A stretch of 64,000 nucleotides of DNA, taken from assembly GCF_037042905.1 (NCBI RefSeq), contig NC_087250.1, forward strand, positions 17,920,001-17,984,000, written 5' to 3'. Both the position numbers and the translations under genes were made by a program. Of the stretch, positions 388 to 63,594 are shown piece by piece; the stretch's first letter is position 1; each line of letters opens with the position of its first letter. Origin of the DNA: Lytechinus pictus (taxonomy: Eukaryota). The notes under the pieces are model-generated. The model made no database searches. It worked only from the letters and a program-made list of their open reading frames with translations, and was not told where the DNA came from.

Positions 388-636
388 CTCTGGCTATGTG
401 TTCTGCAGCATCGATGAAATTAAAAGCTTGAACCATTTCAAGCAACCTCAGCCTTGTTCCTCCTTGTTCGGCCCATTTCTGAAGCATTTTTAGTACCACC
501 CGTCGTATCGAGGCAGGTTCAAAGGTCAAAGATGAAGCCATCACCTGAAGAATTTCAGAAGCTGGCAGATCCAACCTTTGAGAGAGGTCGATGAGGTCTG
601 GAGTAGTCCGAATTTTGGCACAGATTTCACCAATGC
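388..636 (-). CDS. Paralog A: divergent death domain 4 exon
   Basis: LIDLSQRLDLPASEI..VLKMLQKWAEQGGTRLRLLEMV; phase 1-1; conserved in copy B. Confidence 0.72.
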
Positions 637-3600
637 CTTTTTATAGGGAACATAATGACATTGTAAGTTCATAGTGAATGACGACCCCAGTTTCCATTTT
701 GCCGAAATACACAGTTTTACCATTACATTTAAGAAACAAATATATATATTGGCTAGTTTTCTATTCCATCCAACTTTCTACAAAACGTGTTAAAAGCAAT
801 ACCAAAATCGAGTTTAATAAAATTCAAGCTGTGATCATACCTGTTTGTGCGTCTTCGATGTTGTATCCTTGAAGAAGCGTAGACACCTTCTCTTCCTTTT
901 CCTGTCTTCGTAGACGTCTACACAATTGATGAAGGAGTTGCCATGCTAATCTCTCCATTAATGCAGGGTCGTGAGGAGCAATGAGAACTATGATGTCATT
1001 AACGTCCAAACGAAGAGCTTTAGCTAGTTCTAAGGCCAACGTGACATTCGCCACCGGATGAACGACTGTACACAGTTCTGAATTACTAGGTGAACCTCCA
1101 TACCCGTCGATATCGACAATAGTTTGATCTTTGTCTACAATTTAATCATATTTGGTTGAGTAAATGTTATTAGAAATTTCACTAAAGATCCGCCAGTACT
1201 ATATTGATACAACGTGGTGCAATTTTTGTCTCTTGGTTTTGGTGCTATCGAAAACGCGTCTGATACATATATACTTTTTGATTCGTTACTATGGCTTCTT
1301 TCCTCTTTTTTTCTATTAGCCTTCCCCCTCCCTCTCTCTCTCCATCCCTCTTCATCCACACCCTCGCTTATTATTCATTCCTACCTGAATCTGAGTATTC
1401 GATGATCTTCCAATCTTCATTCTCTTCATCTTCATCCTTTTCTGGTTCTTGAGGTGATGAGTCAGGATTCACGTCCGGTTCAAGAGGGGTCACATCATCA
1501 CTGTTCTCATCATCTGCATGGTATGATTTATAGCCAGAGGTCAGTATTCTAAAGTCAGGTTTAACTTAAACTCGGGTTTAAAGTTATGGTTTAAGTATGG
1601 ATAGCCAATTGTTACATGAATCACTAACAGTAGAGATATCATATACTAGCTCATTTGGCTCTTAAATCATTCATAGATGTCTAGAAGTGCAAAAATGGTA
1701 AATAGATGATTGTCTTCACCATCGATGAATCAGGAAAAAGCACAGTAAACATAAGAAACATACATTTGAATAAAAATTTTGACACTTTTGGCTTCCCATG
1801 ATTTTAGCGGGTGTGTTTGCACAGCCCTCCCCTAAAGATTAAAATTTTCATCACATGTGCAGGTAATATAATTTTTTATAACCTAAATTTTTGACGATGC
1901 CAATTTTGACAAAATTCTACTTCTTTGGTCAACCATTCCTGTCGTCGAGAACGAAATATATAACAAGTTGACAACGAAGTAAAGCCCAAACCAACCTTCA
2001 AAGCTTTTATCGGCTTGCCTTTCAATTATTATGCGTGTTTTTTTTTTTTCTTAAAAGCACCTAGCAACTTTTAAATGTATAAATTAGAATGTGATTTTTC
2101 TCATTATGCTGTAAAAAGGATCGTGCACATGAACCTTTTTATTTAAAAGTTCTAGTAGTCGATTTCAGTTCAGTAACGTACTAAAATGCGTTACTGAACT
2201 GAAATCGACTTCTAAACTAGAACTTGCCGCCACATTTATCGTTTTGTGTGTATTTCCTTTTCGTTAAATAATTTTAAATACCATTCATGTCCGTCACGTT
2301 TGAAGCCTCATTTAAAGATTCCCAGACCATCTTCAGTTTTTCATCCGGTTTATCTGATGATATTTGAGATGCTTTCCACATCGAGAGCATTTGAATGTTA
2401 GCATCCTTCCTATTGTACAGGGAACGATGCTCGATGTGCTGTAACTCTAAATCGTCAAATCCCAGTTGCTTGCCAATCTCATAGAATTTCTCTTTGTTAA
2501 TGTGACGGGAAAATTGTAATAGCGTGCAGTCAGGAATCTCTCTGTATTATTGGATTGAAATCATGAAATTCACTATCAGTAATTGTTACCATCATGACAT
2601 GCATTAACTTTATAATAAACAAAATTTTAAGAAAACTGACAAGTTTGCGTTATTTTAATTTAAAAGACAAATTAAAATTTTAACTAATTTACATTAATCT
2701 TCAGTGTTTTTAGTAAAGCAAAATAGTCACACATTCCATTTATGAAGTTGCTGTTTTTTTCATTTGTCTACACTAAAACGTACTGCATACTAAAGAAACT
2801 TACTCAGTTGGGTCAATATCTTGATGGACGTAGCCGAATCCGAGATGAGAGCAATGTTAAGAGAAGAGAAAAATAAATTTATGAAAGAAAAATTACTAAT
2901 AAACTTAATTATTAGTATGCTGCCTAGATGTTAGCAAGTATGTCGTTCCTCATGCAAACCTATACGATCTTAAGTTACAAACGAGATAAAGAATTTTGGC
3001 ATGTAATTCTACAAGAGTAACGGTAGTACCACTTGAGAAAAATTGCCAAAAACCCGTACTGTCGATTTTCCTTACAATATTTTACAAACAAAAATGCAGT
3101 TACACCATGAATCTAGAAGCATTTTTCTGAAACTAGTAAAACAAAATTATTACTTACCCCTTTACGGACGATGAAAAACTAGACTAAATCCAATAGTTTA
3201 ATCCACATGCGAAAATAAAGGATAACGCTACTCAATTTGCATGTTATTATCAACTATTTTTTGTGATAATGGGAAAATAAATTAATGCTTGCAAAATATA
3301 TGTACTGTTATTGGAAGAAATTGTCAGATATCCGTACTCTCCATTTTATAGCAATATTTCCGATTTCTTACAAACGAAGATGCAGTTACATCATGCAGCT
3401 GAAAGTAATTATTCTGAAACTAGTAACACAAATAATGTTTATCAATCTCTTTAGACACGACAGGTATTATAAAAAAAAGACTGAAACCAAAGTAAAATCA
3501 ACAAACACTAACTCCAACCTGGGAAAGTTGTATCATTTGAAGATGAGTTGAATGATTCTATAATTGTGATGAGGGTATTCTTTGCTGCTTGGGTAGATGC

Positions 3601-6600
3601 TTGTCTCCCTCTCCATGCCAGTAGCATGTCATAGGTAGCTTTCTGCCTATCTCGGAATCTCCTGTACTCTACCCGATCCAACTCGGCTATGGTGAAACCA
3701 AGAGCTATGCCCATATCATAGAACTGATTTACGTCCATTGTCTGGGCTATTGTTAGAAAGTCTACGTCCGATTGTAGGTCACTGTTCTTTACTTCTTGGA
3801 GTGTCCTAGAAGATGGATTGAAATAAAAAGGCAAGGCTGAAATATCAAAGAACTGTACAGTTGTTCAATATCAATGAATCTATATTACTACATATTAAAA
3901 CAGTTTCCCTATATATCACATAAACAATTATACATCCATGGCGTGGCAATGTAATATTAAAATCCTTCGTTGAAACGTTGCCGTTGTGAGAACTTGACTG
4001 ATAGTTCACGATCATAATTATTATTGATGTCTTCATCCGTCCTATCGAGTCAACAAGCATATTACGTGAAATGAAATAAATCTTTATATCTGTTTTCTAA
4101 ACAAACATCTGAGCTTCCTCAAAAAAGAAGAGAAAGGAAAAACATGTTATCCGATGGAAACTTACCTAGTGAAGTCTGTCTGTTCGGAGAGAAATTGGCA
4201 CAGAGGTCCATCTAACACAGAGAGAAAATGAAGAGTCATAAAACAAGCATTCCACTGTGTTTTCTGTTTACAATGATAATACTTTATTTCATAATTTAGA
4301 AATTACCTTCGGCATTAACAGATCATATAAACTATGCTTATGCTGTCTGCGATAGTGTCAATGGATGAATATGTACACCTTGTAATGATGATTGGTTTAA
4401 TACCGTTCATTTAGTTCATGGAGCTGAGTGACATGGTGGGTAATTCTTGAATCCATCGCCTTATCCAAGGCTTTGGTGATTAAAATAAGAAATATTTTAT
4501 CATTGCATTATCAAACATGAAATTCTACCTGTATATCTGATGACAAAGGCAATAGATCGTGAAATCCCAAGCTTCCCGGCCTGTGTAATTGTTATGGTAA
4601 TCACTGCAAAGTTTAGATCGCCTTCACTGGGTGGAACGTATATCGATATACATTGGCTTATCTTGGCTAGAAGGTCCCTAAGAGAAACGATCTGTTGGGA
4701 AAAATCCAGCAGCAGAATAGAAATGCATAAATCACCAAGAGGCTGTGCCGTTTCGGCAGGCTTTGATCCACCATAAAAAAAAAGGTATTATTTAAACCGG
4801 GGGGGGGGGGGGGGGTACTAGCCAGGAGGCTCCTATAGAGTAACAATCATTTACTAACGTATGCTTACTCTCCACGGAGCCAGGAATTCCATCCCATTCA
4901 TGTACGTGTACCGCCCAAAAACAGAAACTTTCGCGAGATTTTTCCCGAGATTTTGACCTTCCTTCTAAAAGAACTAGCCCTAAATTATGTAAGTGGGATA
5001 TAACTTCATTTCCGACATTCCTACGCTATCGATTTCATTTTTAAACAAGAATTCATTTTAAAAACGAGAAAAATATTATGAAAAGACGGGGGGAAACTTG
5101 ACACTGCAATCTTGTTTCTCATTGTTCTTTGCCAACGTTACGGACGCATGCGTCCGTAACGTTATTTTAATGAATTCTTGTCTAAACATGAAATGTTTTA
5201 CTCTAACTTATAGGTAAATATCATTGTACATGCCTCAATTTATTTTGTCTGTATAAGTTCATTGTAATTATTTCGCCACATTACTTTGTTCTGTTGAAAA
5301 TGAAATAAATTGAAATTGAATTGAAATCGATACCGTAGAAATCTCGGGGGCGAAAGTTTCTGGTTTTTTGGCGGTACGTGCAGATGAATGGGGAGGAATC
5401 CCTGGCTCCGTGGAAAGTAAGCATACGTTAGTAAATGATTTTTACTCTCTAGGAGCCCCCTGGCGAGGGGATACTTAGATTTGGTTAGGACGGGGGTGTG
5501 CGGCTGAAGGTTTAAAACCCATACCCATATTTACGAGTCATTTCGGCTAAAAGTGTACCCTTTATTTAAGGGATTTTAATAAAATTTGACAAGCAAAAAA
5601 TAATAAATAAAAGAAGTTATCACCCAAATTTGGAGGAGAATATGGACCCATGTTTAAGGCCAGTATCTAAAAATTGGGGCCATGTTTAGGGAATTTCCAG
5701 CATAAAACCATACCGCATGTTTAGAGATTTTTTTTTCCAAAAAAGCGACCCGTATGCCTTATTTTGTGAGTACTTTAAATCGCTTTGGGATTAGTTTCAT
5801 GCTAACAAGGAGCCTGATTGCTAAGAGCACCTTATTTGTTTTATGGTTATCGAATAAGTTCTGAAGCTTAATTACCTGGCTCTCAATTTCTCCTCCTTCA
5901 CGATGGCACGTGATTGTGACGTCACCAGCCTTTGTTTCAACATTGAAAGGGACCGAGCGATGACATCTATGGTAAGATTGTTGTCTCGACTTCTCTTGTG
6001 TTGCCTAAAAAGATGATAACGATTATATTTAATTTCAATTATTGAAAAATGAGAAAAAATATCAAAATTCATATTTTATAATTCTAACTAGAAATCTGGA
6101 GTACAGAAACTCCGAAGACTAATTTTGCCTGCCCAATTGATCTTCGGCGCGGCAGCGCTATATATTTGTCTGACGCGGCCGGAGCTCCCGACTTCCCACC
6201 GGTTGTGAATCGGACTCTCTACCAGCTTAGCCAACACAACCGTTGAAATGATTGATATTGTGTATTAATGTTATTATCAACATGCAATTACAGATGTGAA
6301 AAGTTTACTTTTCTTGATGAATGTGTAAAAAATCCTGATTTTTATTTACAACGGTGCTAATATCTTTAAGCAGAATTATCTATAATAATTTTGATGATAA
6401 GAGCAATACTGATTATGACAGTGATAATTATATTAAGATTGATAATGACAATAATAATAAAAATAATAATACTATCAATAATAGTGAAATGGTTCAGAGC
6501 GCTTCAAATCATTACGTCAACCAATAGCATTCAAGTAATTTTGTTCTACCCGCAAACATTCACCTAGCTCATCTGGCTGGAGGGTGGAAAATTTTCAATC

Positions 6601-9600
6601 AACAATTTCTCAAATGATAAAGATCTTCGGGTTTTCAGAGCTGTTTTTATTTGGCGAATGAATTATAATTCTGAACTTATATGGAGCGACGATGTTTAAT
6701 ACTGACCGCTTCGTTTCCAGGTAGGTCGTTACACAACTGAAGATTAACTGCAAGCTCTTTTCCTCTTTCGATCCTGTATGGGACGTATGGAGTACAAATA
6801 AGTTGCTGTCGGATCACCTGTTGTTCAAGAGGAATCAGAACCCACCACTCCGCACAGTGGCCAATGTACAACTCAAGATGTTTCTTGTACAGTCTGCAGT
6901 ATGGTGGTTTGTCTGGTGAGCTGGATGATTGCTTCCTTAGAGTTTTCGGTAGATCTTGTTTTACCAATGCCGAAAAGAGAAAAGATCAATGGAATGAATT
7001 TCATCACGACTTTCAGAAAGTCACAATGGTTATTAACTGTATAATTATCAGAAACGGTATTATTAGTGACATAATTAGCTGCTGAAGGAAGCTAATGTAT
7101 TGAATGAAGACATTGCGGTGTTGATTTTTTTTTTTATAACAAACATGTGTACACGTTGGTATCAATAATGCACAAAGCATTTTCATTCATCTGTGTTTTG
7201 GAAACATTTTACATACCTTTATTTGGAATATATTTTACATACATTTAATTGTTTGGTTTAAAATTGATACTTTTTGTAATTATATCCATTCTTTCTAGCA
7301 CAAAGCTCAAAGAAGGGAGGATGTTACAATATCTGCATGTTTATGAGATTTGAGGAGCATGTAATGATCCTACCAAAAGAGGGCGCTACAAACCTTTAGT
7401 ACTTATAAAATGCTTCTCTCTCGACTATACAGAAGCTGTGTTATTCTGTTTGACTCTGACTCATAATATAACTTGAAACATGATGGCAGCGGTGAAAAGT
7501 TACATATTTCCGTAGAACAGTTATTGTTCTTCTGTCTGAACTCTATTATGCATCTGCAAACTGTGTTTTGACCTGGATTTCGCCAGCTTTCTGAGAGTCA
7601 TTCCTGCATGTGTCCCACATATGTAAGTCGGTGTACTGTTTTCTACATTCAGCATAGCTGCTATTAGTATTGGTGTGAATTACCATTCTGACTTACTGTT
7701 ACTACTGTTGATTGCATGATGACTGATAATCATAGTGATGGGTCTCCTTCCGAGCTTCCACATGGAGCTACTTTTGCTAAGCCTTCCATTCAACCCCTGG
7801 GCATTTTAATGCGTCTGCTGGGCATAATGTCGCAGAGGAGTGGAAAATGTGGAGCCAGCAATGGGAAAATTACTCTATTCTTACAAATCTCTCTCAACAA
7901 CCTGATCGTTATCAGACTGCCCTTCTCCTTCACAGTGTTGGACCGGAATGTCTTCGCGTCTACAATGGCATGAAATTTGCTACTGAGGCTGATAGCATCA
8001 AATGTTCTGTGATTATATGGACAAGTTTAACACACATTTCTTTGGGGAGAGCAGGGAATTCTTTGAGAGATTTAAATTCAACCAGCGCAATCAAGAGAGT
8101 GGTGAATCCATTGAGCAGTATGTCACGGTTCTTCTTATGATGAGCAAAACGTGTGGATTCTGTGACTTTATAAAAGACAAGCTGCTTGTTGATCGTGTCC
8201 TACTCGGTGTGCGTGATGATCGAATGAGAGAACTACTCATTTCGAGATCTGACCTTGACCTCACGACTGCTATAGACGTGTGTAAAGCTGTAGAGGCTAC
8301 TTCTGTCCAAATGAAAGCTCTGAGTCAAAAGAATGAAGACATACATAAAGTTGGACAGAGACATTTCCCAAAGTCTGGAAGAAAAAGAATAGCGCATAGA
8401 AACCAAAAGGGAAAGATCTACAGAAACGTAAATCAGAGGTTAAGAAGTGCAAGTTCTGTAACAGGGTTCATGAGATGAAAAAAGAGTCCTGTCCAGCATG
8501 GGGACAAAAGTGCAAAGCTTGCAGTAAGCCTAATCACTTCAAGGGATCTTCAGTGTGCAAGACGAGGAATGTTCACCATGTCGGAGATGATGACTACTCA
8601 TCCTCAGCTGAAAGCATTAGTTTTGTGCAAATTAATGCAGTGGATATGGACAAAGAGCCAATTATCTGTAACATGCTTATCAACAATCAGAGGGTACCGT
8701 TCCAACTGGACTCAGGTGCAACAGTGAATCTTCTTCCACAAAAGTATCTAAAAGAGGAGGATGTAGTTCAGAGTGCAAACATCCGTCTATCTATGTGGAA
8801 CAAAGCTATAACTCATGCTATTGGCAAGTGTAAGGTGATAACCAGAAATCCTGCTACTGGCAAGAAATACAAAGTTGAATACATTGTAGTAAAGGAAGAT
8901 CTACCTCCACTGTTGAGCAAAACAGCAGGGGAAAAGATGCAGCTCATTACTGTTCATTATGATTCCCTTGAGCTAGTACGCAGCATAGTTCCTGAGGACA
9001 TTGCTGAGATAATTCCTGACAAGCATCCTGATGTGTTCTCGTCTTCTTCAATTGGCACTCTGCCTGGAAGTCCTGTTCATCTGACAGTTACGAATGATGC
9101 AATGCCTACTGTTTGCCCAGCTAGAATCATCCATGAATCCTTGAAAGGCAAAGTAAAGGATGCACTTGATGATCTTCAGGCAAAAGACATCATCGAAGAA
9201 GTCAGCTCTCCAACTGATTGGGTAAATCAGATGGCTGTGGTGCAGAAAAAATCTGGTAAAGTACGTGTTTGTCTAGACCCCAGACCTCTCAACATCGTGC
9301 GTAAGAGGGAGCACTATCCCTTACCTGTCTTAGATGATATTCTACCTCAGCTTTTCAGATGCTACAGTCTTTTCAATCTGTGACTTGAAAGACGGATACC
9401 TTCACTGCAAGTTAGATGAAGAGTCTAGTTTACTGACGACTTTTGCCCCACCCTTGGGAAGGTACAGATGGAAACGTCTTCCATTTGGTTTGAAAGTCAG
9501 CAGTGAAATCTTCCAAAAGAGGCTTCACCAAGCACTTGATGGTCTTTCTGGAGTCCGCTGTGTGGCCGATGACATCATCATCTGGGGCAACAGTGACGCT

Positions 9601-12600
9601 GAGCATGATGCCCGACTGCATTGTCTACTGAAGAGATGTCAAGCTGTTGGCATTGTGTTGAACAAGGAGAAATGCCAGTTCCGACTGAAAGAAATCTCAT
9701 TCCTTGGCCACATAGTATCCAACTCTGTAATCAAACCTGATCCATCAAAGATCGAAGCTATCCTGAACATGAGCGATCCTTCCTGCAAAGATGACATCCA
9801 TCGTTTGCGTGGGATGGTAAACTACCTATCCAGATACCTACCTAAGTTATCAGATGTGATGAAACCTCTCAATGACTTGACGCATAACAACTCAGCGTGG
9901 ACTTGGGACTCCAACCACGACAAAGCTTTCAAGCTGTTGAAAGAGATGCTAGTGCAAGCACCTGTGTTGGCCTTCTACGATCATAGCAAACTGCTAGAAA
10001 TTCAGACTGATGCCAGCTCCACAGGCGTGGGTGCGGTTATGCTACAAGATGGTAGACCGATAGCCTATGCTAGCAGAATGCTGAGTGATGCTGAATCCAG
10101 ACACTCTGTCACTGAGAAAGAAATGCTTGGTATAGTATTTGCACTGGAGAAATGGAATCAATACACCTATGGCCGTGAAATAAATGTGTTCACTGACCAC
10201 AAACCTCTTGAAACCATCTGCAAGAAACACCTGGATAGAGCTCCAAAGCGTCTGCAAGGGTTACTGCTACGAGCTCTTGCATATGACATACAAGTGAGAT
10301 ATCTCAAGGGCAAGGAAAACGTTCTGGCTGATGTTCTTAGCCGTGCTTCTCTTCCCTATGAGAGTGGACAACATGATCTAGAAGTGGTGAATGATGTTAA
10401 CCACTTGGCACTCCCTGATGACAAGATAGCAGAGATAAAAAGACAGACTGCCAATGACCCTACTCTCTGCCAACTCAAAGACACCATTCTTGAAGGGTAA
10501 CCAGACCACAAGTCACAACTTCCTCAGTCACTCACCCCGTACTTTGGTTTCAGAGATGACCTTTCTGTCAGTGATGATCTAATCTTCAAGGGTGAACGGC
10601 TTGTAGTCCCAAAACAAGTCAGGCACAAAATGAAAGAGGAGTTACATCGTGGTCTCAATGGTGTCGAGTCAACTTTGAGGAGAGCTCGTGATCATCTCTA
10701 CTGGCCGGGCATGAGTAACGAAATCAAGGAATTTATTCAAACATGTGCCACATGCCGAGAAAACTCTATCTCACAGCCTGCCCAGCCTCTGATGTCGCAC
10801 CAGATTATTGACAGACCATGGGCCAAGAGAGGACTTGATATTTTCCATCATAGTAATGACACATATCTTATCATGGTCTGTTATTACTTAAACTTCTTTG
10901 AGATGGAAAAACTACAGAGGACAACTGCCCCTGCAGTCATCAAGAAACTGAAACACCAGTTTGGGAGATATGGAGTACCTGAAATCATCGTATCTGACAA
11001 TGGTCCTCCTTTCTCCTCTAACGAATTTGCTGAATTTGCCAAAAAGCTTGGAGTTAAGCATAATACCATCTCTCCATACAACAGCAAAGCTAATGGCAAA
11101 GCAGAGTCTGCTGTCAAGACTGCAAAAAGAGTACTTACAAGATGCAATGATACTGGAGATGATGTTGATCTAGCCTTAATACTCAACATTCGCAACACCC
11201 CTACACAAGGTATCCAGAGTAGTCCAGTCCAGAGATTCATGGGTCGTCGGACTCGTACTCTCCTCCCCACTTCGACTCGGTTGCTTGCACCTGATCGCAA
11301 CCCACAGGCTGATCTTGAGAGACTGAAAGAAAGCCAGAAACGTCAAGCAAAGTATTTCAACAGAGATACAAGAAAGTTGAAAGATCTCTCACCAGGAGCA
11401 ATAGGAGGAGTCAAGCCATTCAACAATGACAAGAAGTGGAAGAAAGCAGTTATCCTTAAGAAACTGGATGACCGTTCCTATGAAGTTCGCTGTGAGGGCC
11501 AGGTTCTCAGAAGGAACAGAGAACACCTCAGAGCCACATCTGAACCACAAGATGTACATGACACTGGTCCTGCTCTTTACAACTGGAGACGTTCTGATGG
11601 TAATCCTCAACCTGATGTACCAACTACTGAGCGCCATACTTCCCATACCAGGACCCAGATATCACAGACCGCGGATATCAACAGTCCGGAGAAGTCGCGT
11701 GATGCAAACTTGAATACCTCAGAAATGGAACCAACCAACCCAGCTTCCCTGAGACGATCTAGACGTCAGCGACGCGAACCGCTTAAGATGAGGGATTTTG
11801 TTACGTTTTGAACATTTAAACCGAAGAAGGAAAGAAAGTGAATGCTGAAATAAACAAACTGAACGCTAACATTTCTTAAACATTTTTTTTTTGCTTTAAC
11901 TCAAGCAAATTTTGAAGTCAGAACTGAACCAACAACCAACTCATCTATCAAATCGTTTATTTGGACTTATTTTTATGTTGTGAAATCAACCTGGACAATT
12001 TAACCTGGACTTTAAAATCATTTTGTTTGCAACCGGAAGAACTGTTTTGAACTCAATTATTATTTTTTTTGCAAGTATTATAATTGTGCAACTACAAAAA
12101 ATGTGAAAGTCTCATAAACTGGTATTTTGGACATATATTTTGGAAACATTTTACATACATTTAATTGTTTGGTTTAAAATTGATACTTTTTGTAATTATA
12201 TACATTTTTTCTAGCACAAAGCTCAAAGAAGGGAGGATGTTACAATATCTGCATGTTTATGAGATTTGAGGAGCATGTAATGATCTTGCCAAAAGAGGGC
12301 GCTACAAACCTTTAGTACTTATTAAATGCTTCTCTCTCGACTATACAGAAGCTGTGTTATTCTGTTTGACTCTGACTCATAATATAACTTGAAACAATTT
12401 GATGCAAGATAAAAGAGAAATGCATAGAAATACGCCTCGGTCAATGAAGGGCCGTGCCGGGAATCGAACCCCGAACTTTCAATGTGTAGTCGGGCGGCTT
12501 AGACCACTCGGCCACGACACCACGCCGTTAATAGTGAGAATGATTACGATCGATGCGACTTGTAATAACTTATTGTAATGATGATCTTAAAAATGTCAAA

Positions 12601-39705: not shown

Positions 39706-40091
39706 CAGTGCGTCCCAGAAAAAACGAAACCGAGATTAAGCGATGATTTATCATAATTTAATCACAAATACAATAGACAAATGACCTACCAATGTAAGGC
39801 TTAGAATCTCCTTTTTCATCTGATATTGCTTAGATTATTCCTTATTCACGCATGAGTGAGCAAGAACAATTTGAAGAAAGGACACCAAAAACTCATTTGG
39901 CGGGGGTATCTGAATTTCAAAAAGAAAATCACGTGCCTAAAAATTTCAATATCTGCTCTTTTATTTGATACCTTAATCACAAAAAATGGTCAAGAAGTAA
40001 AAAAGTTATTTTCCCTCGAAACAATGCTTGTATTTCCATAATTTCATTAAATAAACGTGCTTTCACCGGTTTCCCACAGAAGCTATCGCAT
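39706..40091. mobile_element. Half copy of the same Tc1/mariner MITE
   Basis: Near-exact reverse complement of 58533..58918; another fragment at about 62785..62900. Confidence 0.85.
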
Positions 40092-51752: not shown

Positions 51753-51757
51753 GTATA

Positions 51758-51814
<57 letters not shown>
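51753..51814. repeat. (TA)n microsatellite
   Basis: Seen directly. Confidence 0.95.
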
Positions 51815-51817
<3 letters not shown>

Positions 51818-53560: not shown

Positions 53561-53849
53561 CTAAGTGTCGTGAAATATGAATTCAGCTTCATGCCTTAAC
53601 CCAACGGCCTCTAAAGCAAGTCGAAGTTGCCTAACCTGTTCACTAGGTCTGACACACTTTCTCCAGTCTTGAAGCATCTCTTTAAGACCTGACCTTGAGA
53701 CATTTCTGGCCGAGGAGTCTGCTCTGACGAGGTATTTCTCCATTGATGAGTAGGAGAAACCGAGCTGGTAGCCAAGCTCACTTGCTTCTTTTATTCCACA
53801 GACTAAATCAATCAATACCTCTACCATGCTATTCGATAATGGGCCTCTT
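53561..53849 (-). CDS. Paralog B: terminal death domain exon
   Basis: ASELGYQLGFSYSSMEKY..LKEMLQDWRK..QLRLALEAVGLRHEAE then stop. Confidence 0.85.
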
Positions 53850-56800
53850 CTAAAATAAGGAGTAATGAATGTGGATGAAACAAATTAATGAGAAAGCTCA
53901 CACTGTCCGAGTTAAAACAGATACATAGAAAACTCATCATTTTTTTTATCGTCTTTGATTTCAAGGCCAAATATCATAAATTCAATGAAAGTGCAGGTCA
54001 ACCGACAGCAATGCCATTCGTAAAGTTCCAATATTTTCTTCCTAAAATGATGAAATCCAAGGAAAAAAGGGAAAATCGCCAACACAGATAAATAGGCACA
54101 TGTTGAACACAATTCGTAATTTTCCATTTTGCACATAATTATGTTTCATCTATCTGTAGTAATTTATATTTGTACAAACTCTTTCTCGTCATCACAACCT
54201 GAATTTATTTTTTATTTAAACGATCTGCATGGTATAAAATCCATCCACAAAGTTGGAGCTACTCGTAATTGAAATACTGACGAAATTTACCACCCAATTC
54301 TAAAAAAAGTAATCATAAAATCAATGGTACAAAATTACAATCGATATTTCATGGAATCTGTTCATATTCCCCTTTTCAGCAACTTTGCATGTTGTACCAA
54401 CATCATTTTGCGTATAATTTTACCTAGTAAGAAAGAAAACAAAAACACTGACGTAATCACTTAATAGCATTTGTTAAATGTCATATTTTTGAAATTTAAA
54501 TAGCGATTTTTAAAAAGTCATTATTAAAAAGAAACATTTATAAAGGTGATTAATTTGTCGCTATTTTATTTCTTTTTAATGGCAGCATTTTAAACTATTT
54601 TTGTTGTTGTTTAATACTTGGTAAAGTTCAGACCTCATTTGTGTTGAAAGTTTGACATTGTCTTACCTTTGTACTTTTTCGTAGTCAGGTTCCACTGTTT
54701 AAAAATAAAAATAAAAACGTATTTCTGTAATTTCTCCACGAGCTTGATAATTCATCATAAAATATTTATTTTCTCCATGTATATTTCGAGTTTTTTGTCA
54801 TTATTAGCATTTTTTACGTGATACCATGCAAATAGAATGAAATCAATATGATTGTTTGAGTAACCCTATATTCAAAGTACAATAAGAACTTCTTTTTTCG
54901 GAATACATACATGTATATAATGACTATAATTATGTTCGATGGTCTCTTTATTGTAAAATAACCTGTCTTCATTAAGATATATTTTTACACATACCTTCTT
55001 TAGAGATATTGATTTCTTGTTCTGCAAGTGTGGCCGGGCCTTGCTCAATGCAAACGCGAACATGCTTATCATCGGTTGAGGGTGGTAGATTGATATCTAT
55101 AGTATTACAACATCCAGATAGTAAGGAACGCACATGAACCTTTTTGAAGAAATAGATTAATAACGGAACCTGAGTTAAAGTCATGAATTAGTCTGATAAA
55201 ACTTATTTGTAACATTAATCTTCTACTATTCGACTTAGAAGAACATTTCATCAGGCCTTCTTAATTCTTTTTAGAGCATGGTATTAACCTCCTTTTAGGA
55301 AGAATGTAGCTCATTTGATAAGATTTGATATTTTAAACAGCAAATTCCAGGGTGCATAGCAAATAAATATTACTGTCTAATGAAATGAACAGATTTTGGT
55401 AAATATGCTTCACATTTATTTCCAATAAAGTATATATTTGCCACTTTAACTAAAAGGGTGTGACAGAAAAGACAACGTTTTTAGATGCGTACAGTTTCTC
55501 GAATTCTCTCCGGGCCAGTAAGACACGAAATCTTGATGTCATCTTCAGCAGATTTCAGATTGAATTTGATTGCCGTCGCGCCTTGGTAGACTGGTTCCGA
55601 TAAGGTGTATTCCTGTCCTCTTACACTCTAGAAACAAACATAGTTGAAATCTAGATAACATGTGATTCTCCGTTTGGATAAAAGGTATGGTAATTCTTTC
55701 TCAAGTAACACTCATAAAACACACACATATAAGTATTATACACACATATGTTGCTGCTGCGCGATCAAAATGCCAGGTAATCGAGATAATCTTTTGTAGA
55801 TGCGACAAGTTTTTCTTATATGATTTGATTAAAAGGTAAGAATTTCCTCTCGTGTAATTGTTGTTCATGCATTGAATATGATTTTTTTATAATAAACGTA
55901 GGGCCTGTACATACTGTAGAGTCTGTGTTGCAAGGATGGGTTATGTAAATTCGCAGAGTGTGATGTGAGGAGTTGCTGATGAAAAGAGGATGTGATACTT
56001 GACAGATGAATTGAACCCCATTGATGTCGTTTGAAGACAAAGCGAAGTATTGAAGATGACGTGTTGAGAAGGTAATCTTGTCTTCTGAGATCTCAAAATC
56101 TCTTGTCGATTCAGGAAGCAAAGTCCTGTACCCATATTCTCCTAGAATATGCAACGATAGACGAGAAAAATACTTCGTGTTAAAGCCAGTTTATCGCGTT
56201 GACAGCCATGTTAAGTAATAAAAATGACTTATGTTATTGACCTGATATACATTATGAGTCATACATTTAATATGTTAACTTGCTATACATTCAACCATAC
56301 CATAAAACATTACTGTATTTTCATGTTTTATTTCTGGTGCACAAATGAAAAGCAAAAAGGCGACTGAATATGAATTTGAAAAGTTACACACCGACTGCCC
56401 AAATTTGACATCACACAATACAAGCAATTCCGATCACAAAAGCGTATACTACATAAACATTACCTGGTTCTATTTTGCTGTAAAGCTTCACACGCAAGTC
56501 TTGCTTCTTCTGCTGGTATCGATCTGAAGCAATGTAGTGTGGAAGCACTATAGTAGCAGGTTTGAGAAGATGATGGTTGAAGGAACATCGGATGGGTGGT
56601 GTTATAAGAACCTCCTGAGGATCCAGAGGAAACTTAGATGGACTTCGACTGAGGATAGTGAGAGTAACGACTGATCTCATTCCTTTGGGGATTGCTCCTG
56701 ATGGAATAGATACCCGGATATCAGGTTCGTCTAGCTTCAGGTCTCCACCATCATGATCAATGATGCCATGTGTGAAAGGATCCAGGAAACCTGGGTGGTT

Positions 56801-59800
56801 TGGTATTGCTGTTATAGTGAAGTAGAACATTTCGGGTCAGCAAGCAGATATGCAGATATTGCGGATTTTTCAAGAGCCGATTTTTGAATGTGTTACATTT
56901 GATTATTAAAACTGAAAATAACGTGATTGAGATAAAATGAGACATCAATCAATATGCTGTCTCTTAATTGAATTACAATAGTCTTATAATAACATGTGGC
57001 ACTTTTCCTAATGGTAAAATGTCCATTCAAGAAATAAACATGGATGAAGACAAATGTTGCCTTTGATTTCGACATTTTCGAATTTTATAGTTGAGTGCAC
57101 AGGTATGAATAACGAACAAAAAATATTGTGCGTCTTTGCTACAAAAAGTATACTTATGATTTTTAAAATACACTTTTGATTTTAATATTTTCGTCCCATG
57201 ACTGCTTAAACCTACCTCGGGCTATGTGATCTGCAGCATCGTTGAAATCAAAAGCTTGAACCATTTCAAGCAACCTCAGCCTTGTTCCTCCTTGCTTGGC
57301 CCATTTCTGAAGCATTTGTAGTACCATCCGACGTATCGAGGCAGGTTCAAAGGTCAAAGATGAAGCCATCACCTGAAGAATTTCAGAAGCTGGCAGATCC
57401 AACCTTTGAGAGAGGTCGATGAGGTCTGGAGTAGTCCGAATTTTGGCACAGATTTCACCAATACCTTTTTTATAGGGAACATAATGACATTGTAAGTTCA
57501 TAGTGAATGACGACTCCTGTTTCCATTTTGCCGAAATATACAGATTTACCATTACATTAAAAAATATATATATTTTGGCTAGTTGTCTATTCCATCCAAC
57601 TTTAAAAAAAAAACGTGTTAAAAGCTATACCAAAAGCGAGTTTAATAAAATTCAAGCTGTGATCAAACCTGGTTGAGCGTCTTCGATGTTGTATCCTTGA
57701 AGAAGCGTATACACCTTCTCTTCCTTCTCCTGTCTTCCTAGACGTCTACACCACTGATGAAGGAGTTGCCATGCTAGTCTCTCCATTAATGCAGGGTCGC
57801 GAGGAGCAATGAGAACTATGATGTCATTAACGTCCAAACAAAGGGCTTTAGCTAGTTCTAAGGCCAACGTGACATTCGCCACCGGACGAACGACGCTACA
57901 CAGTTCTGAATTACTTGGTGAACCTCCATACCCGTCGATGTCGACAATAGTTTCATCTTTGTCTACGATTTAATAATATTTGTTTGGGTGAATGTTATTA
58001 GAAATTTCAATAAAGATCCGACAGTACTATATTGATACAACGTGGTGCAATTTTTGTATCTTGGTTTTGGTGCTATCGAAAACGCGTCTGATACATACAG
58101 TGCGTCCCACAAAAAACGAAACCGAGATTTATCGATGATTTATCATAACTTATTCACAAATACAATAGACAAATTAACTACCATTGTAAAGCTTAGGATC
58201 TCCTTTTTAATCTGAAATTACTTAGATTATTTTTCATTCACGCATGAGTGAGCAAAAACAATTTCAAGAGGGGATACCAAAAAGTCATTTGGCGGGCTGT
58301 ATCTGGGTTTCAAAATCAAAACCACATTTTAAAAAAGTTCAATATCCGCTCTTTAATTTGATACCTCAATTACAGAAAATGGTCAAGAAATAACAAAGTT
58401 CTGGTTATTTGAAATAAGGCTTGAATTTCAATAATTTCATAAAATTAAGAGGTTCTACATGCTAGCGTTCAAACTCACTTGACACTCCCGTTTTGTTGAC
58501 GATCAGCCATGCATTAAGTCTTTTGTTAACCATGCGATAGCTTCTGTTGGAAACGGGTGAAAACACGTTTGTTAAATGAAATTATGGAAATACAAGCATT
58601 GTTTCGAGGGATCATAACTTTCTTACTTCTTGACCATTTTTTGTGATTAAGGTATCAAATAAAAGAGCAGATATTGAACTTTTTAGGCATGTGATTTTCT
58701 TTTTGAAATTCAGATACCCCCCGCCAAATGAGTTTTTGGTATCCTTTCTTCAAATTGTTTTTGCTCACTCATGCGTGAATGAAAAATAATATAAGTAATT
58801 TCAGATGAAAGAGGATATTCTAAGCTTTACATTGGTAGGTCAATTGTCTATTGTATTTGTGATTAAGTTATGATAAATCATCGCTTAATCTCGGTTTCGT
58901 TTTTTCTGGGACGCACTGTATATACTTTTTGATTCGTTACTATGGCTTCTTTCCTCTTTTTTGTATTAGCCCCTCCCCCCTCTCTCTCTCTCTCCACCCC
59001 TCTTCATCCATACCCTCGCTTATCATTCATTCCTACCTGACTCTGAGTATTCAATGATCTTCCAATCTTCATTCTCTTCATCTTCATCCTCATCTGGTTC
59101 TTGAGGTGATCGGTCAGAATTCACATCCGGATCAAGAGGGGTCACACCATCACTATTCTCATCATCTGCATGATATGATTTATAGCCAAAGGGTTTTGTT
59201 GCATTCTTTTAAATATTACCTGATAATAACCACTGAAAACTCACCGCTTGTGCCGTAAGAAAGTAATAGTTCGGTGTGTTTGCACAACCCCCCCCCCCCC
59301 ACTAAAGATTGAAATTTTTATTTATAACCCTCATTTTTGACGAGGCCAATTTCGACCAATTCTACCTCTTCTCAACAATTCCTGTCGACGAGAACGAAAT
59401 ATATGACAAGTTGACAACAATAGTAAAGCCCAGACCAACCTTCAAAGTTAAAAGAGCTTGACTTTCAATTATGATGCGTGTTATTTTTTTCTTTAAAGCA
59501 CCAAGCAACATTTAAATGTATAAATTAGGATGTGATTTTACTCATTATGCTGTAAAAAAGGGATCGTGTAATAAACCTTTTTACTTAAACATTCTAGTTT
59601 AGTAGTCGATTTCAGTTCACTAACGTATTAAAATGCGTTTAACTGAACTGAAATCAACTTCTGAACAAGAACTTGTCGCCACATTTTTCGTTTTGTGTGC
59701 ATTTCCTTTTCATTAAATGATTTTAGATACCATTCACGTCCGTCACTTTTGAAGCCTCATTTAAAGATTCCCAGACGGTCTTCAATTTCTCATCCGGTTT

Positions 59801-62800
59801 ATCTGATGATCTTTGCGATGCTTTCCACAACGAGAGCATTTGAATGTTAGCATCCTTTCTATTGTACAGGGATCGATGCTCGATGTGATGTAACTCTAGA
59901 TCGTCAAATCCCAGCTGCCTGCCAATCTCATAGAATTTATCTTTGTTAATGTGACGGGAAAATTCTAATAGCATGCAGTCAGGAATCTCTCTGTATCATT
60001 GGATTGAAATCATGAAATTCACTATCAGTAATTACCATCATGACATACATTAACTTATAATAAACAAAATTTTAAGAAAACCGACAAGTTTGCGTTAATA
60101 TAATTTAAAAGGCAAATTAATGTTTTAACTAATTTACTTTAATCTTCAGTGTTCTCAGTAGAGCAAAAATAGTAACATTTGTCTACAATAAAACGTATTG
60201 CATACTGAAGAAACTTACTTAGTCGGGTCAATATCTTGATGGACGTAGCCGAATCCGATGTGAGCGCAATGTTAAGAAAAGAGAAAAATATATTTATGGA
60301 AGAAAGACAAATCATTGATGAACTAAATTATTAGTACGCTGTCTAGATATTAGCAAGTATTTCGTTCCTCCTACAGAACTATACGATATTTAGATGCAAA
60401 CGAGATAAAGAATCTTGCAACTCAATTTGCATGTAATTATATCAGAGTTACTGTAGTCAATTATTACTCATCTCTACGGACGGTGAAAAACTAGACTAAA
60501 TCCATAGTTTAATCCACAAACCATAATCAAGAATAACGCTACTCAATTTGCATGTTATTATCAACTATTTTTTTGTGATAAAGGAAAAAGAAATTAATGC
60601 TTCAAAAATATGTACTGTTAAGAAATTGTCAGAAATTCGTACTCCCCATTATTTATAGCAATATTTCTGAGCTTTTACAAACGAAGATGCAATTATGCAA
60701 TCATGCAGCTGAAAGTAATTATTCTGACCTAATTCTAATCTATTTAGATACAACAGGTATTACAAAAACAAAGACTGAAACCAAAGTAAAATCAACAAAC
60801 ACTAAGTCAAACCTGGGAAACTTGTATCATATGAAGATGAGTTGAATGATTCTATAATTGTGATAAGAGTATTCTTTGCTGCTTGGTTAGATGCTTGTCT
60901 CCCTCTCCAAGTCATTAGCATGTCATAGGTAGCTTGCTGCCTATCTCTGAATCTCCTGTACTCTACCCGATCCAACTCGGCTATGGTGAAACCAAGAGCT
61001 ATGCCCAAATCATAAAACTGATTTACGTCCATTATCTTGGCTATTGTTAGGATGTCTATGTCCGACTGTAGGTCACTGTTCTTTACTTTGTCTAGTGTCC
61101 TAGAAGATAGATTGAAATAAAAAAGGCATGGCTGAAATCTCAAAGAACTGTTGTTCAGTATTACTGAATCTAAATTACTCCATTTAAAACCGTTTTCCTT
61201 CGTATATCACATATACATCCATGGCCTGGCAATGTAATTTTAAAAGCCTTCGTTGAAACGTTGCAGTTTTGAGAACCTGACTGAAAGTTCACGATCATAA
61301 TTATTATTGATGTCTTCATCCTCCTATCGAGTCAACAAGCATATTACCTGAAATGAAATAAATCTATTTTCTAAACAAATAGTTGAGCTTCCTCGAAAAA
61401 GAAAAACATGTTAACCGATGGAAACTTACCTAGTGAGTTCTGTCTGTTCGGACGGAAATTGGCACACAGGCCCATCTAACACAGAGAGAAAATGAAGAGA
61501 CATAAAACGAACATTCCACTGTGTATTCTGTTTACAATGATAATACTTCTCTTTCTTTCATAGTTTGAAAATTACCCTCGGCATTAAGAGATCATATAAA
61601 CTATGCTTATGCTGTCAGCGATAGCGTCAATGGATGAATATGTACACCTTGTTATGATAAATTGTTTAATACCGTTCATTTAGTTCATGGAGCTGAGTGG
61701 GTAATTCTTGAATCCATCGTCTTATCCAAGTCTTTGGTGATTAAAATAAGAAACATTTTATCATTGCATTATCAAACATGAAATTCTACCTGTATATCTG
61801 ATGACAAAGGCAATAGATCGTGATATCCCAAGCTTCCCAGCCTGTGTAATTGTTATGGTAATCACTGCAAAGTTCAGATCGCCTTCACTGGGTGGAACGT
61901 ATATCGATATACATTGGCTTATCTTGGCTAGAAGGTCCCTAAGAGAAACGATCTGTTGGGAAAAAGTACAGCAGCAGAATAGAAATGCATAAACCGCCAA
62001 GAGGCTGTGCCGTTTCAGCAGGCCTCAGATCCACCAACAAAGAGGTATTATTTAAATCCGGGGGGGGGGGGGGCTTAGATTTAGTTAGGACGGGGGTGTG
62101 CGGCTGAAGGTTTAAAACCCATACACATATTACGTGTCATTTGGGGTAAAAGGGTTCCAATTATAAGGGATTTATTAAAATTTGACAAGATCTTTGCAAA
62201 AAAAAATCACCCAGAATTGGAGAGTATGGACCCATATTTAAGGCCAGTATCTAAAAATTGGGGCCATGAACCTATATTTAAGGCCAGTATAACAAAAATT
62301 GGGTCATTTTTAGGGATTTTCCAGCATATAACCAATGTTCAAGGATTTTTTTCTCTCCAAGAAAGTGGCCCATTCTAGCGACACATCGCCGTATGCCTTA
62401 TTTTGGGAGTACTTTAAATCGCTTTGGGATTAGTTTTATGATAACAAGGAGCCAGATTAATAAGAGCACTGTGTTTGTTTTACGATTATCAAATATGTTA
62501 TGAAGCTTAATTACCTGGCTTTCAATTTCTCCTCCCTCACGGTGGCACGTGATTGTGACGTCACCAGACTTTGTTTCAACATTGAAGGGGACCGAGCGAT
62601 GGCATCTGTGGTAAGATCGTTGTGTCGACTCCTCTTGTGTTGCCTACAAAGATGATTACGATTATATTCTATTTTAATTAATGAAAATGAGAAAAATATA
62701 AAAATCTATATTTCATAATTCTAAATACAAATCTGAAGTAGCAATACTCCGAAGACTGATTTTGCCTGCCCGATTGATCTTCCTAAATAAACGTGTTTTT

Positions 62801-63594
62801 ACCGGTTTCCCACAGAAGCTATCGCATAGTTAACAAGACTTAATGCATGGCTGATCGTCAACATGACGGAATGTCGAGTGAGTTTGAACGCTAGCCTCTA
62901 GAGGTGGAGAACTTCGCCGGCGAAACTGTTTCACGAGCGAAGTTCGCCGGTGAAAAGGCCAGTATGAAAGCAAACTGGAGAACTTCTCCTCTTTAATGAC
63001 GTCAGAGGTATTTTTTTTCTCTCCCGAAGTCCCCTGTACCGAGATTCCGCGCGCGATAGTTGCAAGCTCAGCTGAATGCTATGGCCAAGTAGATACCCTC
63101 GAACATTATTTTTTTATACTAACAATATTTATTAAAAAGTCATTTTTACATGTATAAAATGCGCTAAAATATAAAAACAAGGTGATATTGTTTGTTTTCC
63201 TCGAAATACTTCCAAAATATGTTGTACTAGTAATTAATTTTTCATATCTTTTTTTAATAAGGATCTTCATTTTTTTTGAGTTGTTTTGAATTGGCGAATA
63301 AGCGATAATTCTGAACTTATATGGAGCGACGATGTTTAATACTGACCGCTTCGTTTCCAGGTAGGTCGTTACACAACTGAAGAATAACTGCAAGCTCTTT
63401 TCCTCTTTCGATCCTGTCTGGGACGTATGGAGTACAAATAAGTTGCTGTCGGATCACCTGTTGTTCAAGAGGAATCAGAACCCACCACTCCGCACAGTGG
63501 GTAATGTACAGCTCAAGATGTTTCTTGTACAGTCTGCAGTATGGTGGTTTGTCTGGTGAGCTGGATGATTGCTTCCTTAGAGTTTTCGGTAGAT
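53561..63594 (-). CDS. Paralog B: 3' part of ankyrin / ZU5-UPA / death-domain gene (5' end beyond right edge)
   Basis: 16 phase-consistent exons: 63347-63594, 62515-62643, 61790-61952, 61430-61475, 60813-61099, 60219-60234, 59731-59990, 59037-59165, 57669-57962, 57216-57464, 56464-56808, 55915-56141, 55493-55627, 54995-55169 (or 55139), 54667-54694, 53561-53849 ending in TAG. Confidence 0.85.
54667..56141 (-). CDS. Paralog B: second ZU5 end and UPA-like exons
   Basis: Four open exons with canonical sites and matching phases (1-0, 0-0, 0-1, 1-2), the same phase series as the first UPA module. Confidence 0.72.
56464..56808 (-). CDS. Paralog B: second ZU5 domain exon
   Basis: GIIDHDGGDLKLDEPDIRVSIPSGAIPKG..LITPPIRC..LLKPATIVLPH is a clear ZU5 signature. 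Confidence 0.9.
57216..61099 (-). CDS. Paralog B: four death-domain exons plus linkers
   Basis: ORFs 60802..61143, 59723..59974, 57652..57882 and 57163..57552, each homologous to a copy A exon. Confidence 0.82.
58098..58918. mobile_element. Tc1/mariner-type MITE with long TIRs
   Basis: CAGTGCGTCCCA..TGGGACGCACTG ends, TA duplication, empty site in copy A at about 1268. Confidence 0.93.

Follow-up and report, generated by a model that had tools for sequence, protein, structure and literature searches.

Tandem giant ankyrin-ZU5-UPA-death-domain genes in the sea urchin Lytechinus pictus: a putative innate-immune-type or cell-death sensor lacking NACHT and LRR

The stretch analysed here, referred to as the window, is a 64,000-nucleotide (nt) segment of AT-rich DNA from the sea urchin Lytechinus pictus (contig NC_087250.1, positions 17,920,001 to 17,984,000). 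It carries parts of two tandem genes, A and B, whose predicted products combine a very long array of ankyrin (ANK) repeats with ZU5, UPA and death domains (DDs). The anatomy of these genes is firmly established; the role in immunity or cell death is what we infer from it. The order Ank(~78)-ZU5-(UPA)-DD-DD-linker-helical domain-DD-ZU5-UPA-DD, which refines the ankyrin - ZU5-UPA - 4xDD - ZU5-UPA - DD put forward in an earlier reading of the bare sequence (the original prediction), is supported by the open frame, by Pfam matches and by colinearity with homologues. By the defining features of these groups the protein is not an NLR, PIDD, UNC5 or canonical ankyrin, and it looks like a putative innate-immune-type or cell-death sensor without NACHT and LRR, neither NLR nor PIDD. 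The reading preferred here, to which a probability of about 0.5 is assigned, is that of a cytoplasmic recognition scaffold, in which a diversifying ankyrin surface would be joined to death domains signalling by homotypic assembly.

The giant ankyrin exon of gene A (23564-15994, minus strand; 7,571 nt; acceptor cag|GT, donor AAG|gtaggt; possible start ATG at 23562) consists of 76.5 repeats of exactly 33 amino acids (aa), with no insertions or deletions, which stay in register and carry the G-TALH-AA--GH motif. It is followed by the exon of ankyrin repeat 77 (15564-15382; Pfam Ank E 1.6e-06), whose downstream intron, 15381-15083, is spliced out in an RNA contig, and by a divergent last ankyrin-like exon (repeat 78; 15082-14925), recognised by a weak Pfam Ank_4 match (E 0.0038), by an RNA contig and by homologue colinearity. 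With these two exons the array reaches ~78 repeats. The Pfam ankyrin families (PF00023/PF12796; Ank, Ank_2 and Ank_4) match at 23446-23589 and 15331-15600, and the repeat number given in the original prediction is borne out by both the repeat table and Pfam.

The variation within the array is concentrated at a few sites. The entropy amounts to 1.9-2.4 bits at repeat positions 2, 4, 9, 12 and 13 and does not exceed 1.14 bits at the other 28; on average, two repeats are 84.6% identical across the 28 framework positions and 27.9% identical across the five variable ones, which form 44 distinct five-residue signatures among 73 repeats. These five positions flank the G-TALH hairpin and sit in the first helix, and from the ANK consensus and designed ankyrin libraries we take them to be the concave binding face. 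The pooled ratio of non-synonymous to synonymous divergence (dN/dS) is 2.5 (0.77/0.31) at the five variable codons and 0.47 (0.074/0.157) in the rest, values in which dN at the five positions is inflated because the sites were picked by their amino-acid variability, and in which the pooled repeat pairs are not independent. Moreover, the array contains two seven-repeat duplications, one between units 24-30 and 45-51 (99.3% nt identity) and the other between units 35-41 and 40-46 (98.6%), which point to recent unequal crossing-over. The idea of a variable repeat sensor is thus supported by the hypervariability observed at five positions of each repeat.

A similar pattern is known from fungal NLRs. 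In the passages of Dyrka et al. (2014, PMC4986451) drawn on here, the variable sites of their highly internally conserved ANK repeats are located on the concave binding face, and such repeats are described as rare in metazoans (0.8%). The sea urchin array resembles the fungal ones, as far as they are characterised in those passages, in its near-identical repeats, in variation limited to few positions and in repeat shuffling, represented here by the duplicated seven-repeat blocks. It differs from them in belonging to a metazoan protein without a NOD domain and in having ~76 repeats, against a maximum of 21 quoted in the same excerpts. The whole-repeat amino-acid identity is also lower, 76% as compared with the fungal criterion of 85% quoted there, whereas the framework alone gives 84.6%.

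The exons were placed by tblastn of annotated homologues and then by phase-keeping GT-AG junctions that fit the homologues, and critical sites were read directly. All parts of both genes lie on the minus strand. Gene A is represented by its 5' and middle part, from 23564 down to 388, where it runs off the window. Downstream of the ankyrin exons it contains a 35-nt mini-exon (14041-14007; ..LPSLDDVQFTK..), which was seen only via an RNA contig, has AG/GT sites, keeps the reading phase and encodes a segment found also in the homologue P0223. Then follow the ZU5a exon (13050-12718), three exons assigned to a first UPA, UPAa, by position only and colinear with homologues (6954-6707, 6004-5876 and 4691-4529), DD1 (3794-3519), DD2 (2539-2282), an acidic D/E-rich linker recognised in translation (1513-1385), the helical domain labelled 'DD3' (1134-841) and DD4 (636-388), the last exon in the window, whose donor was read. 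The linker corresponds to a part of the model of homologue P0005 with a predicted local distance difference test score (pLDDT) below 50.

Gene B is the 3' part of a tandem paralogue, from 63594 down to 53561, likewise on the minus strand. It comprises UPAa-like exons (63594-63347, 62643-62515 and 61952-61790), DD1 (61091-60813), DD2 (59988-59731), a linker (59165-59037), a DD3-like exon (57962-57669) and DD4 (57464-57216), all of which are paralogous to their counterparts in gene A. These are followed by ZU5b (56808-56464), a second UPA, UPAb (56141-55915, 55627-55493 and 55139-54995), a 28-nt mini-exon with AG/GT sites (54694-54667; VEPDYEKVQ), found via residues 541-549 of P0005, and DD5 with the stop codon TAG (53849-53561; stop at 53563-53561). 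Gene A has AG at each of its 12 acceptors and GT at each of its 13 donors. In the gene B tail, an intact frame of 971 codons, 13 of the 14 acceptors were AG as first listed, and the DD1 acceptor is better placed at 61091, where it is AG.

When the 13 exons of gene A, counted from the ATG, are joined to the last six of gene B, the resulting chimeric model has 11,193 nt including the stop, or 3,730 codons, and is in phase at every junction, with a sole internal stop at codon 40. The original prediction of a phase-consistent joined frame with one early stop is therefore retained, but its length of 11,298 nt is not; the difference of 105 nt arises because exon boundaries differ and two mini-exons (14041-14007 and 54694-54667) are included. 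A chance origin of the frame is excluded by the 2,483 consecutive open codons after the stop and by the Pfam E-values.

Both ZU5 domains (PF00791) exceed the curated Pfam cut-off of 21 bits: ZU5a scores 43.2 bits (E 4.9e-11; match 12683-13147) and ZU5b 51.3 bits (E 1.5e-13; match 56414-56836), and hhalign relates the two at 96.4%. In the PDB, the sequence of ZU5b matches the ZU5 of ZO-1 (2e-06) and UNC5B (0.018). The two ZU5 domains claimed beforehand are thus confirmed by Pfam. For the death domains (PF00531) the curated Pfam cut-off is 22.6 bits. DD1 reaches 21.5 bits in copy A (E 2.6e-04; match 3511-3864) and 25.2 bits in copy B (match 60805-61206), and DD2 lies above the cut-off in both copies, with 24.2 bits (E 3.7e-05; match 2277-2546) and 26.3 bits (match 59726-59995). 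DD4 scores 18.9 bits in the window (gene B match 57166-57624) and 31.2 bits in the corresponding segment of P0005, and DD5 scores 18.8 bits in the window (E 0.0018; match 53564-53884). The hhalign comparisons give 100% for DD1-DD2, 91.6% for DD4-DD5, 76.0% for DD1-DD5 and 68.5% for DD2-DD5, with ZU5 and linker controls at or below 2.1%. DD4, whose death fold was one of the points on which the original prediction was said to depend, is upheld by its score in P0005 and by its relation to DD5.

The C-terminal part was further assessed on an AlphaFold2 (AF2) model of P0005 that extends from the end of DD2 through DD5, was built from a 59-sequence family alignment and has a pLDDT of 80.7 and a predicted template modelling score of 0.71; P0005 and the window exons are 84-96% identical. 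Foldseek matched this model to UNC5b (3g5b, E 2e-14), ankyrin-B (4d8o, 2.3e-10), CARD8 (7jn7, 1.9e-05) and rat NLRP1 (7crw, 3.3e-05). In VIA, residues 265-539 superimpose on the ZU5-UPA of UNC5b (Z 13.8, root-mean-square deviation (rmsd) 3.9, 266 residues) and on the FIIND of CARD8 (7jkq_B, Z 12.7, 250 residues), with the ZU5 of erythroid ankyrin (3f59) at Z 11.2. Ankyrin-B and ankyrin-G structures (6m3q/6m3r) are further structural matches. Residues 545-646 match the DD of PIDD (2of5_H, Z 11.1, rmsd 2.5, 92 residues), followed by the DDs of RIPK1 (Z 11.0), FADD (Z 10.4) and ankyrin-G (4o6x, Z 9.7). The second ZU5-UPA-DD supramodule, including DD5, is therefore confirmed at the level of the predicted fold.

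The first UPA presents a different picture. Pfam UPA had no match in any of the four homologues scanned, at E<=5, and the second UPA is recognised by comparison of the P0005 model with UNC5b and CARD8. The exons at 6954-4529 have the three-exon layout and the place after a ZU5 that characterise the second UPA. Thus, of the two ZU5-UPA modules originally proposed, the second stands with its UPA, but the first UPA, also without a Pfam match, is a putative one, assigned by its position.

The domain labelled 'DD3' was put forward as one of five death domains, of which DD1, DD2, DD4 and DD5 are supported by Pfam, by fold or by both, but 'DD3' is not: no Pfam, Foldseek or VIA match to a death fold was obtained for it. 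The homologues show four Death stretches, not five. The hhalign comparison relates 'DD3' to DD4 at 57.6% (P 1e-4), to DD5 at 15.4% and to DD1 at 1.0%, with controls at or below 2.1%. Modelled by AF2 as an exon alone, it has five helices at a pLDDT of 62; this exon model had no Foldseek match in the PDB at E<=0.001, its best VIA hits (Z 6.2) were unrelated helical proteins, and the ESM Atlas returned clusters of cNMP-binding proteins (best score 0.88) and no support for a death fold. Within the P0005 model the same region, residues 84-165, forms helices at pLDDT ~90, five of which align one-to-one with helices 1-5 of DD4. On these models 'DD3' is best described as a helical domain of undecided fold.

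The tandem arrangement of the two genes is evident from the window itself, since positions 1-7145 recur at 56825-63781 with 80-94% nt identity; copies A and B are therefore real tandem paralogues, as had been claimed. They are separated by a spacer of ~30 kb that holds transposons. The A and B tails differ by a dS of 0.107 and a dN/dS of 0.38 over 1,725 nt, with no stops, and on this ratio both have been under purifying selection since the duplication. The proteins of the window match models of L. pictus and Lytechinus variegatus at 84-96% identity and those of Strongylocentrotus purpuratus at 50-70%. In a full scan of 1.84 billion cluster representatives with P0005, only 78 reached E<=0.001; a threshold of 1e-10 left 39 of them, and one of 1e-30 left 24. 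Ten clusters were looked up, and the nine that are named all belong to Lytechinus or Strongylocentrotus, so that the family appears to be echinoid and lineage-restricted, judging from all named relatives looked up. In L. variegatus, eight models with neighbouring numbers (LOC121417586, 588, 590, 591, 600, 602, 608 and 609) are all located on one 47.8-Mb contig, which likewise supports a tandem cluster.

The guess that automated annotations of similar genes would exist proved correct. P0223 (L. variegatus LOC121417600, 1,406 aa) has Ank, two ZU5 stretches and four Death stretches, and its colinearity with gene A extends from the last ankyrin repeats to DD5, mini-exon included, although it has only about six repeats. 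Further examples are P0037 (L. pictus LOC135157855, 2,478 aa) and P0012 (S. purpuratus LOC115922503). Seven annotated homologues are colinear along their whole length (P0223, P0037, P0034, P0031, P0028, P0012 and P0014), Ank, ZU5 and Death occur together in the single models P0223, P0037, P0034, P0031 and P0012, and two ZU5 stretches were found in four of the nine homologues scanned. The family models are named 'uncharacterized protein', and UniRef applies the name 'Netrin receptor UNC5' to P0012, P0014 and P0022, because the tail is the only part common to both. The annotated relatives have far fewer ankyrin repeats than gene A and none reaches ~3,730 aa, and among proteins of 1,386-4,410 aa none is more than 52% identical to the end of the ankyrin exon; the giant form is therefore unannotated. 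The literature search returned no echinoderm paper on this Ank-ZU5-DD family, and Robertson et al. 2006 (Dev Biol) may mention such architectures. The sequences are thus already public as uncharacterised proteins and the expansion of sea urchin death domains is known. As a side observation, P0233 (S. purpuratus LOC105446931, 1,656 aa), called 'NACHT domain-containing' in UniRef, falls into one cluster with P0207, in which residues 198-567 resemble the ZU5-UPA-DD region of P0005 (E 1.2e-04). P0233, a different gene, would by these sequence matches be an NLR whose tail is of the NLRP1-like ZU5-UPA type and closes with a DD.

The joining of these exons was also followed in RNA. Reads and contigs were aligned to 12600-16600, and the spliced contigs came from the public run X1. 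Record 2 joins 15566-15380 to 15080-14925, which, given a 2-nt ambiguity, corresponds to the predicted intron 15381-15083. Record 1 (3,348 nt) joins 14043-14007 to 13050-12718 across a GT..AG intron; its 16 upstream letters match 14927-14942 at 16 of 16 positions, in the exon ending at 14925, and its first 30 letters past ZU5a match 6925-6954 at 29 of 30, thereby spanning the retrotransposon-bearing intron. It runs 2,962 nt beyond ZU5a, which is about the length of the remaining coding sequence. Within the ZU5a exon it differs at 2 of 333 letters (99.4% identical), and the RNA therefore comes from this locus or an allele of it. Record 3 (16106-15994) stops aligning at the predicted giant-exon donor 15994 and has 12 further letters. 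Spliced RNA thus links ZU5a to the last ankyrin exons on one side and to the next exon on the other. The possibility, named in the original prediction, that ankyrin and ZU5/DD exons are carried by separate transcripts is largely excluded from the last ankyrin exons onward, but the junction of the giant exon with 15564 is supported indirectly, by the contig ending at 15994. In the same region, X1 contigs pile up at 14610-14743, with a summed word depth of 1,436 and, in six contigs, a 1-nt insertion after 14631; this pile-up is probably a dispersed repeat inside the intron.

The ZU5-UPA modules were also examined for self-cleavage of the PIDD/FIIND kind. The cleavage of NLRP1 is taken here to occur at F1212|S1213. 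In VIA, the two NLRP1 fragments fall on adjoining parts of the P0005 model (6x6c_E, 1087-1212, on residues 254-401, and 6x6a_G, 1214-1350, on residues 402-535), and the equivalent of the cleavage site, residues 399-402, reads R-H-L-Q and lacks Ser; this placement is approximate, being read from a predicted structure and from the ends of alignment ranges only. As described in the part of D'Osualdo et al. (2011) drawn on here, the SF|S/HF|S site lies on the loop just before the last ZU5 strand, and its Phe is equivalent to Leu-677 of UNC5b. All 21 sequences of the sea urchin family retain [R/H/N]-H-[L/I]-Q. In ZU5a the most likely site equivalent is H-C-A, or L-Y-I by spacing, neither of which contains Ser or Thr.

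A second candidate was considered in the exon after ZU5b, where a Phe five residues upstream of the site is conserved in 21 of 21 sequences and is followed by S in 13, T in 2, P in 5 and H in 1. This 'TF|S' was judged unlikely to be the equivalent of SF|S/HF|S, as the scissile-bond equivalent lies five residues later and the F-S pair is inside the preceding strand. From R-H-L-Q at the site and F-S in the preceding strand, no PIDD/FIIND-like self-cleavage is predicted, and autoproteolysis of this type in ZU5b-UPA appears unlikely on the model. The modules look UNC5b-like instead. According to Wang et al. (2009), as cited in the excerpted text of D'Osualdo et al. (2011), the closed ZU5-UPA-DD of UNC5b is autoinhibitory.

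Compared with known systems, the protein shares parts with several and coincides with none. The canonical ankyrins ANK1/2/3 have 24 ANK repeats, ZU5N-ZU5C-UPA and one DD. The sea urchin protein has the same four kinds of domain, with structural matches to 4d8o, 6m3q/6m3r, 3f59 and 4o6x, but ~78 homogenised repeats in place of 24 diverged ones and four to five DDs; its ZU5s are not in tandem but ~900 residues apart, an interval in which a probable UPA is followed by four domains of helical or death type, and the family is lineage-specific and tandemly arranged. The UNC5 netrin receptors carry an immunoglobulin (Ig)/thrombospondin (TSP) ectodomain and a transmembrane helix before ZU5-UPA-DD. UNC5b (3g5b) is the best structural match of the sea urchin C-terminal module, which has, like UNC5b with its Leu-677, a Leu at the place of the autocleavage Phe (D'Osualdo et al., 2011, in the passage referred to above). 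It differs from UNC5b in the N-terminal ankyrin array and in the presence of the module twice, with further DDs between the copies; an Ig/TSP ectodomain had no match in the window open reading frames (ORFs) scanned, and no transmembrane segment was found.

PIDD1 consists of an N-terminal leucine-rich repeat (LRR) region and ZU5-ZU5-UPA-DD, undergoes HFS autoprocessing and forms the PIDDosome. The sea urchin protein likewise has a repeat 'sensor' in its N-terminal part and ZU5/UPA/DD in its C-terminal part, with the PIDDosome DD (2of5_H) as the best fold match of DD5. In place of LRR and HFS it has ANK and R-H-L-Q, as well as extra DDs, and there were no LRR matches in any window ORF scanned. 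The FIIND of NLRP1 and CARD8 has the ZU5-UPA fold with an SF|S autocleavage site and is followed by a CARD. Its fold is shared (CARD8 7jkq_B, Z 12.7), whereas SF|S is missing from the equivalent site, a DD takes the place of the CARD, and NACHT is absent. NACHT/NB-ARC was not found in 241 of the 288 minus-strand ORFs of at least 40 aa (outside the ankyrin exon and the long interspersed nuclear element (LINE)), a scan that left out 47 ORFs antisense inside two plus-strand transposons and in which the 5' exon(s) of gene A are unseen, nor in 71 of the 130 plus-strand ORFs of at least 55 aa, nor in the homologues scanned. Lacking NACHT/NB-ARC and LRR, the protein is therefore neither NLR nor PIDD. 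Of the original description as a PIDD/NLR-analogous receptor there remains a likeness to PIDD in the joining of a repeat array to ZU5/UPA/DD and in the best match of DD5; the defining features of either group were not found, and the PIDD/FIIND motif is absent at the structural equivalent.

In the recognition scaffold preferred here, the ankyrin solenoid would act as a ligand-binding surface, diversified by unequal crossing-over and by selection at exposed positions. Ligand binding, or loss of an UNC5b-like autoinhibited closed state of ZU5-UPA-DD, could free the death domains, which might then nucleate homotypic death-domain assemblies leading to caspase or NF-kB-type signalling. A bolder version can be suggested only tentatively: the genes would form an echinoid, NACHT-less class of germline-diversified intracellular receptors, with ~76 homogenised repeats reshuffled and concave-face positions selected, and a chain of four to five death folds, ending in an UNC5b-like autoinhibitory ZU5-UPA-DD, that seeds DD assembly. 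Their tandem clusters would differ from one individual to another, and the class would correspond in metazoans to the fungal ANK-NLRs.

Several observations weigh against the recognition scaffold, besides the two limits on dN/dS, the absence of Pfam support for 'DD3' (no match at E<=0.01 for 1134-841 or 57962-57669), the Ser-less cleavage-site equivalent and the indirect evidence for the junction of the giant exon. The joined protein combines exons of two different genes; the 3' end of gene A itself is beyond the window. At the other end, tblastn with the first 70 residues of seven paralogues (E<=50) gave no convincing 5' exon upstream of 23564. The likeness between the first-UPA exons and the second UPA is weak in hhalign (40.9% for the second exons, 5.4% for the third). 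Three raw RNA-seq runs labelled as the same species, sampled to ~6% each, gave no exon coverage in 12600-16600. Finally, gene A carries an early stop and a degenerate repeat, which are considered below.

The strongest of the other explanations is a structural or membrane-skeleton adaptor like the ankyrins, in which the solenoid binds membrane proteins or serves as an elastic scaffold, the ZU5s bind spectrin-like partners and the DDs are purely intramolecular or regulatory modules that take no part in immunity or cell death. The protein has the domain set of the ankyrins (ANK, ZU5, UPA and DD), its model matches ankyrin-B (4d8o, 2.3e-10) and the ZU5 of erythroid ankyrin (3f59, Z 11.2), ZU5b resembles the ZU5 of ZO-1 in sequence (E 2e-06), and both ZU5 modules have non-cleaving residues of the UNC5/ankyrin type. 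However, homogenised repeats, variation at five positions and duplicated blocks are unexpected for a conserved scaffold, the family is lineage-restricted and tandem, no known cytoskeletal adaptor has anything like four to five death domains, and the ankyrin-type tandem ZU5N-ZU5C is missing. A role as an adaptor is therefore considered unlikely.

A further explanation is that gene A is dead or dying in a birth-and-death family, with non-functional transcripts and with variation produced by relaxed constraint and unequal crossing-over. It draws on a TAA at 23445-23443 (minus strand), in repeat 2, which is codon 40 when counted from the ATG at 23562 and for which the consensus of the repeats gives TTA (Leu). 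No other stop interrupts the 2,523 codons of the giant exon. The longest stop-to-stop frame, 15880-23442 (minus strand), has 2,520 codons and is ankyrin repeat throughout. In the same part of the array (within 23100-23564), repeat 5 shows degeneration (..NALPRSYWYSPIDFIKYLTRRG..), in contrast to the clean repeats 6-73, and translation may in fact begin only after the first five repeats. An intronic 5.2-kb long terminal repeat (LTR) retrotransposon, a LINE 1.2 kb upstream of the giant exon and the many short or partial models among annotated relatives also fit decay. On the other hand, with 2,483 codons open past the TAA, the lesion must be very recent, allelic or an error, or else the start is later. 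The dN/dS of the framework codons (0.47) and of the A and B tails (0.38, without stops), the integrity of every splice site and the existence of a spliced RNA with 99.4% identity to the ZU5a exon also speak against it. Decay is accordingly judged improbable as an account of gene A, which, as assembled, may have become a pseudogene only very recently, represent a null allele or use a start codon further downstream.

A last possibility, that the giant ankyrin exon is transcribed separately from the ZU5/DD exons and that their fusion is an artefact of neighbouring genes, is very improbable: for the closest loci NCBI gives tail-only models (P0004, 435 aa; P0005, 646 aa; P0009, 1,010 aa) and no single contig was seen bridging 15994 to 15564, but the RNA contigs chain in order (16106-15994, 15566-15380 to 15080-14925, mini-exon, ZU5a, next exon), P0223, P0037, P0034, P0031 and P0012 hold Ank, ZU5 and Death in one model, and the phases fit at all junctions.

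Sea urchins have very large innate-immune and death-domain repertoires, and to our knowledge most of their expanded death-domain proteins have no assigned role. The locus described here displays one such expanded family in full, with a record-length homogenised array wired to several DDs and to a ZU5-UPA-DD module resembling those that control signalling in UNC5b, PIDD and NLRP1/CARD8. The number of death-domain matches has been given as 87 in S. purpuratus and 31 in human (Zmasek et al. 2007, PMC2246300, Table 1). If the array is a recognition surface, animals would, like fungi, diversify intracellular receptors by shuffling high-identity repeats, and would do so without a NOD domain. If the protein is a scaffold, or the family is decaying, the locus would represent an ordinary lineage-specific expansion.

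Apart from the two genes, the window contains several mobile elements. The LTR retrotransposon (7222-12396, plus strand) is inserted in the intron between ZU5a and the next exon, antisense to gene A, and has matches to RVT_1, RNase H and integrase; its LTRs (7222-7480 and 12139-12396; 259 and 258 bp) are 97.3% alike, and its pol is broken by an in-frame stop at 10498-10500 and by frame changes. The LINE located 1.2 kb upstream of the giant exon and on the same strand (24735-28175, minus strand) has an uninterrupted frame of 1,146 codons, with Exo_endo_phos (2e-15) and RVT_1 (9.1e-32), and may be a young copy. A second LINE, with apurinic endonuclease (APE) and reverse transcriptase (RT) domains (44411-47164, plus strand), lies in the spacer between A and B and has one in-frame stop at 45551-45553. 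The Rfam scan returned no families at the gathering score. The intron between the linker and 'DD3' of gene B carries an insertion of ~830 bp (58092-58924), which is absent from gene A, where 1269 and 1268 are contiguous. Compared with itself, this insertion forms an inverted repeat (80% over 846 bp); part of it recurs at 39702-40091 with 94% identity, and it looks like a foldback element or one similar to a miniature inverted-repeat transposable element (MITE). A short (TTA)n microsatellite, in the minus-strand reading, occupies 24420-24460, between the upstream LINE and the giant exon of gene A.

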